A DNA stretch of 64,000 bases from the NCBI RefSeq assembly GCF_016026235.1, contig NZ_CP065613.1; one strand, given 5' to 3'. The position numbers are program-made. Origin of the DNA: Escherichia coli (GTDB taxonomy: Bacteria; Pseudomonadota; Gammaproteobacteria; Enterobacterales; Enterobacteriaceae). Below, one piece after another: positions 15,701-18,566 of the stretch (positions within the stretch are counted from its first letter, which is position 1; every line of letters begins with the position of its first letter).

Positions 15701-18566
15701 GAAGTTGCTGGATGATAAACATGGCGAACTGAAATCAATGCGTACCGCGCCAAATTATTTACGTCGGGGTGTCGCCAGTCTGATTTTACGCCACATTTTG
15801 CAGGTCGCCCATGACAGATGCCTTCATCGCCTGAGCTTAGAAACGGGTACACAGGCTGGATTTACGGCCTGCCATCAACTTTATTTGAAGCATGGTTTCG
15901 TTGATTGCGAACCGTTTGCTGATTATCAACTTGATCCACTCAGTCGATTTTTGTCATTGACGCTATGCGAAAATAATGAATTGCCATGAGCCAGACGCAG
16001 CACATTCTTGCATTCGACGTGCTGCGCCTTTATTTATCACCAGCCGGAAACGCCTTGTCTCTAGACGCCCCTTCCACATACGCCACAAGAAACCTCTATT
16101 CCAGTGACACAATCACGCCTGATTATTTCCCTAGCCCGGAATATGAATAAAAACATCAACAAAGATTAAATTATCCAAACGTTACTATTGCGTCTGTGGT
16201 CGTAACAACAACCGACCTGGTGATGCGTGTTAAAGGAGACACTCTGATGTTCAGGGGGGTTATCGCGTTTACAGATCGTGGATGGCAGAAAACTTTCAGG
16301 ATCAGGTATCCATTTCAAACCAGAAAACGAGTGAGTTTACCCCATCCATGCCCCACGCGGTGAGATCGGATGTAATCAACAACAGGTTACACAACTTACA
16401 CCTGCATGCTCATCACTTCCTGATACGCCGCCACCAGCTTATTACGCACCTGAATCCCCATTTGCATAGAAACTGAGGCTTTTTGCATATCGGTCATCAC
16501 ATCGTTTAACGCCACGCCGGGTTCGCCGAGGGTGAATTTTTCTGCCTGCGTGCGGGCGGCGGTTTGTGTATCGCTTATGCGATCGAGCGCGGCATGCAGC
16601 TGCCCAGCAAAACTAATGGTCGGTTGCGGTAGTGATTCCTGCGCACGCGCACTCATCGACGTAGCCTGTAACTGGCTGATAACCCCTTCAATCCCCTGTA
16701 TCGCTGACATTTTCATCTCCCGGATAATTTCTGGTAGCAAAGCCTACCAGTAAGTCAATAAGACAAAGGCGCTAAATAGCAACAAAAAAACGGGTTTATT
16801 GGCGGATAGAAAAAAACGAAAGCACAAATAATGAGAGCGTCAATTTTTCGAGTTTGCTGACCCGGGAGTGAGTCTTGTTCCACTTTGCCAATAACGCCGT
16901 CCATAATCAGCCACGAGGTGCGCGATGAATGCGACTGCAGCCCAGACAAAATCTCTTGAGTGGCTTAATCGCCTGCGTGCGAATCCGAAAATTCCATTGA
17001 TTGTTGCCGGTTCCGCGGCAGTGGCGGTCATGGTCGCACTGATCCTGTGGGCGAAAGCCCCCGACTACCGCACATTATTCAGCAATCTGTCCGATCAGGA
17101 TGGTGGCGCAATCGTCAGCCAACTGACGCATATGAATATTCCTTACCGCTTTAGCGAAGCCAGCGGCGCGATTGAAGTTCCGGCAGATAAAGTTCACGAA
17201 CTGCGTCTGCGCCTGGCGCAACAAGGTTTGCCCAAAGGCGGCGCGGTCGGTTTCGAACTGCTCGATCAGGAAAAGTTTGGCATTAGCCAGTTCAGCGAAC
17301 AGGTGAATTATCAGCGGGCGCTGGAAGGCGAGCTTTCTCGTACCATCGAAACTATCGGCCCGGTAAAAGGGGCGCGCGTACATCTGGCAATGCCAAAACC
17401 GTCTTTATTCGTCCGTGAACAAAAATCCCCTTCTGCATCAGTGACGGTAAATCTGTTACCCGGCCGCGCACTCGATGAAGGGCAAATTAGCGCCATTGTG
17501 CATCTGGTTTCCAGCGCGGTGGCTGGTCTGCCTCCGGGGAACGTCACGTTGGTGGATCAGGGCGGACATCTGTTAACCCAGTCCAACACCAGCGGGCGCG
17601 ATCTTAATGATGCTCAGTTGAAATATGCCAGTGATGTCGAAGGCCGAATTCAGCGGCGTATTGAAGCGATCCTGTCGCCTATTGTCGGCAATGGCAATAT
17701 TCACGCCCAGGTTACGGCGCAACTGGACTTCGCCAGTAAGGAGCAAACCGAAGAGCAGTATCGCCCTAACGGTGATAAATCTCAGGCGGCGCTCCGCTCA
17801 CGCCAGCTTAATGAGAGCGAGCAAAGCGGTTCCGGTTATCCAGGCGGCGTACCGGGTGCGTTGTCGAATCAACCAGCACCCGCAAATAACGCGCCGATCA
17901 GCACGCCTCCGGCAAATCAAAATAATCGCCAGCAGCAGGCAAGCACTACCAGCAATAATGGGCCGCGTAGCACACAACGTAATGAAACCAGTAACTACGA
18001 GGTCGATCGCACCATTCGTCATACCAAAATGAACGTGGGCGATGTGCAACGTCTGTCAGTCGCGGTAGTGGTGAATTACAAAACCTTGCCAGATGGCAAA
18101 CCGTTGCCTCTCAGCAACGAACAGATGAAGCAAATTGAAGATCTGACCCGCGAGGCGATGGGCTTTTCTGAAAAACGCGGTGACTCGCTCAATGTCGTTA
18201 ACTCGCCGTTCAATAGCAGCGACGAAAGCGGTGGAGAACTGCCGTTCTGGCAACAACAGGTATTTATCGATCAGTTGCTGAGCGCCGGACGCTGGTTGCT
18301 GGTACTGCTGGTGGCGTGGCTACTGTGGCGTAAAGCGGTACGTCCACAGCTAACTCGTCGCGCTGAGGCGATGAAAGCTGTGCAGCAACAGGCGCAGGCC
18401 CGCGAGGAAGTGGAAGATGCGGTGGAAGTCCGCCTGAGCAAAGATGAACAACTCCAACAACGACGCGCGAACCAACGTCTGGGGGCAGAGGTCATGAGCC
18501 AGCGTATCCGTGAAATGTCTGATAACGATCCGCGCGTGGTGGCGCTGGTCATTCGCCAGTGGATAA

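Follow-up and report, generated by a model that had tools for sequence, protein, structure and literature searches.

The e14 element and phage 21, both found in icd, integrate into the 3' end of a protein-coding gene and carry a replacement copy. A relic of a phage integrase is annotated at the 3' end of fliE in Escherichia coli K-12, where the curated MG1655 record lists two pseudogenes between yedL and fliE, namely yedN (b4495) and intG (b1936, 2012502..2012780, plus strand), the latter being described as "cryptic prophage PR-G" and overlapping the fliE 3' end. Related integrases are those of Escherichia phage IdasGreatGrand and Enterobacter phage vB_EclS_CobraSix (Cobrasixvirus); in its intact form such an enzyme has 434 residues and comprises an Arm-DNA-bind_2 domain (residues 7-70) and a Phage_integrase domain (203-396). 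A literature search on intG, PR-G and fliE integration sites returned nothing useful.

Here we analyse a 38-codon ORF between yedL and fliE in a 64,000-nucleotide stretch of E. coli DNA (hereafter the window), which is 100% identical to record NZ_CP065615.1 of E. coli FDAARGOS_943; in that record PGAP has called yedL and fliE and left the ORF uncalled (Table 1). A preliminary description had singled out the ORF for its strong Shine-Dalgarno (SD) sequence, and proposed that it might either encode a small protein or represent a deleted gene's stub. On direct reading, the sequence at the ORF start (...GTTAAAGGAGACACTCTGATGTTCAGG...) contains the AAGGAG hexamer, the ATG (16247-16249) and 38 codons exactly as described, ending in TGA (16361-16363) and with the quoted translation MFRGVIAFTDRGWQKTFRIRYPFQTRKRVSLPHPCPTR, but the spacer separating hexamer and ATG (16239-16246) is 8 nt long, rather than the 7 nt originally given. 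We consider it very likely that the ORF is an open frame that arose by chance in decaying integrase DNA, the remnant of the intG gene of prophage PR-G. The feature is thus an already known and annotated pseudogene remnant, and the ORF itself is biologically of little weight.

Table 1. Features of the yedL-fliE region, in window coordinates.
Feature	Position	Strand	Basis
yedL, GNAT N-acetyltransferase, 159 aa	15510..15989	+	ORF list and NZ_CP065615.1 annotation
Terminator-like hairpin past yedL: 8-bp G+C-rich stem CGCAGCAC/GTGCTGCG, 15-nt loop, then CCTTTATTTAT	15996..16037	+	RNA fold
Junction: yedN/espR cassette present in K-12 and O157 (1212 bp in MG1655), absent from the window	16125..16128	.	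blastn and flank comparison
Homologue of K-12 pseudogene intG (b1936, cryptic prophage PR-G)	16196..16476	+	MG1655 annotation, alignment, PGAP labels elsewhere
AAGGAG, SD-like hexamer from lineage-specific substitutions in former integrase codons	16233..16238	+	alignment
True coding remnant, 46 residues (386-431 of 434) of a phage tyrosine integrase	16240..16377	+	tblastn
38-codon ORF, out-of-frame reading of the integrase stub	16247..16363	+	direct read and alignment
Putative att core, segment common to phage and chromosome: 16 nt past fliE, fliE stop and last ~7 fliE codons	16380..16417	.	alignments
fliE, 104 aa, convergent with the integrase stub	16396..16710	-	ORF list and annotation

The region containing the ORF corresponds to MG1655 intG in chromosomal position (from the MG1655 annotation and pairwise alignment), strand, neighbours (yedL/yedN and fliE) and overlap with the fliE 3' end, and blastn aligns window positions 16125-16450 with the intG region of the K-12 locus (5432-5755 of L007) at 93% DNA identity. 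Unlike MG1655, the window has two extra nucleotides (at about 16225-16226) that split the annotated intG frame, lacks the yedN cassette, and carries the AAGGAG hexamer together with a TAA to CAA change, which create the 38-codon alternative-frame ORF. In many E. coli genomes PGAP labels the same place "integrase, incomplete", in a frame differing from that of the ORF, and searching with the K-12 IntG translation brings up PF00589-bearing fragments as well as proteins of E. coli that are named integrase.

The integrase-frame peptide of the coding remnant (HSDVQGGYRVYRSWMAENFQDQVSISNQKTSEFTPSMPHAVRSDVIN) matches the IdasGreatGrand integrase over 46 residues with 80.4% identity (tblastn, E 6e-16), and that of CobraSix with 75% identity; judged from these alignments, the intG homologue is a genuine phage integrase remnant. 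Whilst the similarity to both phage proteins is close, only 46 of the 434 residues are left, none of them from the arm-binding domain and very few from the catalytic domain. Since the stub retains just the last 11 catalytic-domain residues and the tail, it cannot be functional; in place of a complete PF00589 domain with its R-K-H-R-H/W-Y residues, the window holds the protein from residue 386 onwards. Pfam found no match to the stub, a permissive tblastn search upstream of 16240 for further pieces of integrase gave nothing significant, and the only phage homology over 15990-16240 was a single 31-nt chance match. The stub has also lost its end: in the window and K-12 lineages an 11-bp deletion (ACAAGCATAGT) at about 16379-16380 took out the integrase stop codon, and for this reason the K-12 intG annotation reads through fliE antisense to the equivalent of window position 16476. 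Strains of the VE-V10-F type still possess the 11-bp segment with the integrase stop.

Comparison with the phage gene also accounts for the ORF and its apparent ribosome-binding site. The ATG consists of the AT of an integrase Asp codon (in His-Ser-Asp, CAC TCT GAT) and the G that follows, so the ORF is a shifted frame of integrase. This shifted frame is closed after 23 codons in the functional phage gene, Escherichia sp. E1V33, K-12 and most E. coli, where the integrase codons ATT TTA AAC create a TAA; the window reads ATT TCA AAC and codon 24 is CAA, so that the length of 38 codons results from a T to C change that erased the ancestral out-of-frame stop. Similarly, AAGGAG derives from the integrase codons CAA ATG GGA (Gln-Met-Gly), the hexamer at this position being AATGGG in the phage, AATGAG in K-12 and AAAGAG in Res13 (the SD region is CAAATGGGAC in the phage and E1V33, CAAATGAGAC in K-12, TAAAAGAGAC in Res13 and TAAAGGAGAC in the window). 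As read from these alleles, both the SD and the ORF length are recent, lineage-specific point changes. As the ORF frame differs from that of the integrase stub, the ORF is not the stub's own coding remnant. The proposal of a deleted gene's stub accordingly holds insofar as the ORF overlies the C-terminal stub of a largely deleted gene, but that gene is intG rather than yedN or yedM, and the frame is not its own.

These comparisons suggest the following history. A temperate phage of the IdasGreatGrand/CobraSix type would have inserted itself at the 3' end of fliE, its integrase gene pointing towards fliE, and the prophage would then have been deleted except for the att core and the final ~46-49 codons of the integrase, leaving what K-12 annotates as the pseudogene intG (cryptic prophage PR-G). 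The window lineage would subsequently have acquired two neutral substitutions, AATGAG to AAGGAG and TAA to CAA, whereby the frame now runs for 38 codons. We infer that both substitutions were neutral and that the ORF is without function.

The integration step is suggested by the DNA that follows the integrase gene. Identity between phage and chromosome runs beyond the phage integrase stop through CAACAGGTTACAAAACCTACACCTGCATG..CATCA and into the last ~7 codons of fliE, as would be the case for attP and attB, and the attP region of the phage bears the final fliE codons V-M-S-M-Q-V-stop with a synonymous difference at Ser (AGC vs TCC). This is the pattern expected of an attP/attB core that restores the 3' end of a gene, and the segment shared by phage and chromosome may be the crossover site. 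In carrying the last codons of its target gene with synonymous differences the phage resembles the e14/phage 21 class; in contrast to that class, integration at fliE is indicated here by prophage junctions in several genera. The att core is present in a single copy in the window, with no second core that would mark the other prophage end.

A 30-mer scan of species-representative genomes gave hits on 14 contigs. The integrase is full-length, convergent with fliE and immediately adjacent to its stop in Citrobacter sp. FP75, Pseudenterobacter timonensis, Enterobacter soli and an Enterobacter MAG (L011, L013, L014 and L017; 429 aa aligned, 85-87% identity), and partial copies lie beside fliE at L010, L012, L016, L019, L020 and L023, the hosts of truncated copies being other Enterobacter, Citrobacter, Lelliottia and Pluralibacter together with Escherichia sp. 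E1V33. Full-length integrases abutting the fliE stop in other genera point to the fliE 3' end as a phage attachment site, as deduced from these prophage junctions, and the site appears to be a common one for CobraSix/IdasGreatGrand-like phages in Citrobacter, Enterobacter, Pseudenterobacter, Lelliottia, Pluralibacter and Escherichia. The identification of such a site in several enterobacterial genera is of modest value for the cataloguing of prophages. Two contigs, from a MAG labelled 'Lachnospiraceae bacterium' (L018, SFGN01000137.1) and a 268-bp contig labelled 'Nocardioides malaquae' (L021), carry the E. coli fliE-intG junction with FliE 100% identical, and are almost certainly E. coli contamination.

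The distribution of the segment among 5426 complete genomes bears on whether it has been retained for a non-coding role, as a fliE 3' UTR or terminator or as a residual att site, with the ORF merely incidental. The ~140 bp beside fliE (from 16259) are present in 5308 of the 5426, and a 6-bp hairpin spans the fliE stop codon. Against this, the fold of the fliE 3' flank is no better than that of shuffled sequence (z = -1.35), strain-to-strain identity of the segment is only about 90-95% with indels that include the 11-bp one, and Rfam gave no match over 14000-19000 at E<=1. We accordingly regard such a role as unlikely; this alternative in any case agrees with the integrase-remnant explanation regarding the ORF itself.

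The proposal that the ORF encodes a small protein has its most specific form in a newly born, lineage-specific gene, in which gain of AAGGAG and loss of TAA have yielded a translated, arginine-rich and basic 38-residue peptide in a few strains. A strong SD, an ATG and optimal spacing favour this, since AAGGAG with an 8-nt spacer and ATG is near-ideal for initiation and any plus-strand transcript crossing it could be translated; both enabling mutations, moreover, occur together in the window, FDAARGOS_943 and H9Ecoli. In the same sense, each of the window's four other AAGGAG-N5-10-ATG sites begins a frame of 38 codons or more, and one or more of these (yedF) is a real gene. The arrangement is nonetheless no more than chance expectation. 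In 300 first-order Markov simulations of the window, scored for AAGGAG-N5-10-ATG followed by a frame of 38 codons or more, 44% of the simulated 64-kb windows contained one or more (mean 0.58 per 64 kb). That a textbook SD, ATG and 38-codon frame can arise by two substitutions means that their appearance in a single genome is no evidence for a small protein.

Conservation among E. coli argues in the same direction. In a comparison of 13 E. coli loci, AAGGAG with 38 codons was confined to the three strains named above, whilst each mutation occurs singly elsewhere, AAGGAG preceding a 23-codon frame in N3 and AATGAG a 38-codon frame in FDAARGOS_497; the close relative Z0117EC0005 has AAGGAG with a 1-nt deletion that gives 48 codons with an unrelated ending. 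Drift would predict such a pattern. The frame has 26 codons in O157 and 23 in K-12 and Res13, and neither the ATG nor the SD is found in FDAARGOS_1290 and VE-V10-F. In the survey of 5426 genomes, a 41-mer around the SD is exact in 97 and the CAA-bearing 41-mer of the window in 56, as against at least 2831 for the TAA-bearing K-12 counterpart. The stretch comprising SD and ORF is at least 99% identical in 8 of the 5426 and at least 80% covered in only 2684; the remaining genomes match only beyond about 16259, since in them the stub adjoins a different (DLP12-like) segment at that point, and the ATG is wholly missing in about half of E. coli genomes.

The peptide itself is without relatives in the collections searched. 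Its exact sequence, with three start variants, is absent from a 15-billion-protein collection, in which no homologues were found, and PHROG gave no match. A Pfam scan of the 38- and 55-aa peptides produced nothing significant, the lone match (IcmF_helical, E 0.26) scoring 11.9 bits against a cut-off of 24.1. With SD, start and length (23, 26, 38 or 48 codons, or no start) all varying among E. coli and the peptide lacking a homologue or family match, the small-protein reading is unsupported.

The expression context was examined as well. A consensus scan of 15400-17000 found no sigma-70-like promoter, and the ORF is separated from yedL by a terminator-like hairpin. The latter could, on the basis of its predicted fold, terminate yedL transcripts ahead of the ORF; if so, little plus-strand transcription would reach it. 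The hairpin escaped a consensus terminator scan, whose one hit was a chance terminator inside fliE, because its loop exceeds 8 nt. The supplement of Stringer 2021 (initiation profiling in K-12) has no entry for intG, fliE or the corresponding coordinates, which is weak evidence because the K-12 allele has 23 codons and a poor SD. Taking these points together, we consider a newly born gene highly improbable; were it true, a translated 38-residue peptide would show a gene in the course of arising de novo from prophage debris.

Two other short frames lie in the DNA 3' of yedL. At 16008-16064 (plus strand), overlapping the hairpin, PGAP annotates in FDAARGOS_943, H9Ecoli and Z0117EC0005 an 18-aa 'cyclic lactone autoinducer peptide' (WP_108990983.1, MHSTCCAFIYHQPETPCL, TTG start), which is probably a spurious match to an AgrD-type model in E. 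coli. A 54-codon ORF at 15986-16150 (plus strand) begins with an ATG that shares bases with the stop codon of yedL (ATGA), and it is open in K-12 and O157 too (46 codons); it is probably non-coding, since the few differences between strains are mostly amino-acid-changing.

There remains the shortening of the interval, on which the preliminary description had commented. YedL of the window is 97.5% identical to its K-12 counterpart, and the yedL-fliE spacer measures 406 bp as compared with 1620 bp in MG1655, in line with the estimate of about 400 bp; the difference is a 1212-bp yedN-bearing K-12 segment, absent here. Of the K-12 genes named in that description, yedN is present and yedM is gone from the current record; intG was not among them. 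Window positions 15902-16128 align by blastn with DNA just past K-12 yedL (3993-4219 of L007), and the K-12 alignment places the missing 1212 bp elsewhere than at the ORF, which consequently lies within the intG homologue and outside any deleted DNA. The 1.2-kb shortening and the absence of yedN might suggest that the ORF is what the deletion spared of yedN or yedM, but the alignments refute this: the junction of the missing segment, at 16125-16128, is 120 bp upstream of the ORF; K-12 retains both yedN and, beside it, the ORF region; and this region matches integrase rather than the leucine-rich-repeat DUF5503/EspR family. Nor does the window show any remnant of yedN/EspR (DUF5503, leucine-rich-repeat effector), the 1212-bp K-12 yedN segment being absent in its entirety.

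Within E. coli, the interval adjoining fliE is a hotspot of variable content. In about half of the complete E. coli genomes (represented by L004 and L005, where about 950-4137 corresponds to window 15300-16395), yedK is truncated and yedL is missing; in this type an IS200/IS605 tnpA and a DLP12-like module, ybcM-ybcL-emrE, adjoin fliE, and the intG stub is joined, at about residue 387, to a fragment of a second, 40%-identical integrase. Res13-type genomes also lack yedL, and the two ends of their deletion have the microhomology CTCTATTAGAC / TCTCTAGAC in common (L003 2940-3030 against window 15441-15458 and 16057-16070). O157:H7 (L006 2056-2641) has the tandem order yedL, espR3, second intG stub, partial yedL, espR4, intG stub and fliE, an arrangement that points to duplication of the whole unit, and its second intG stub keeps the 11-bp segment region, with the integrase stop, that is deleted from the fliE-proximal copy.
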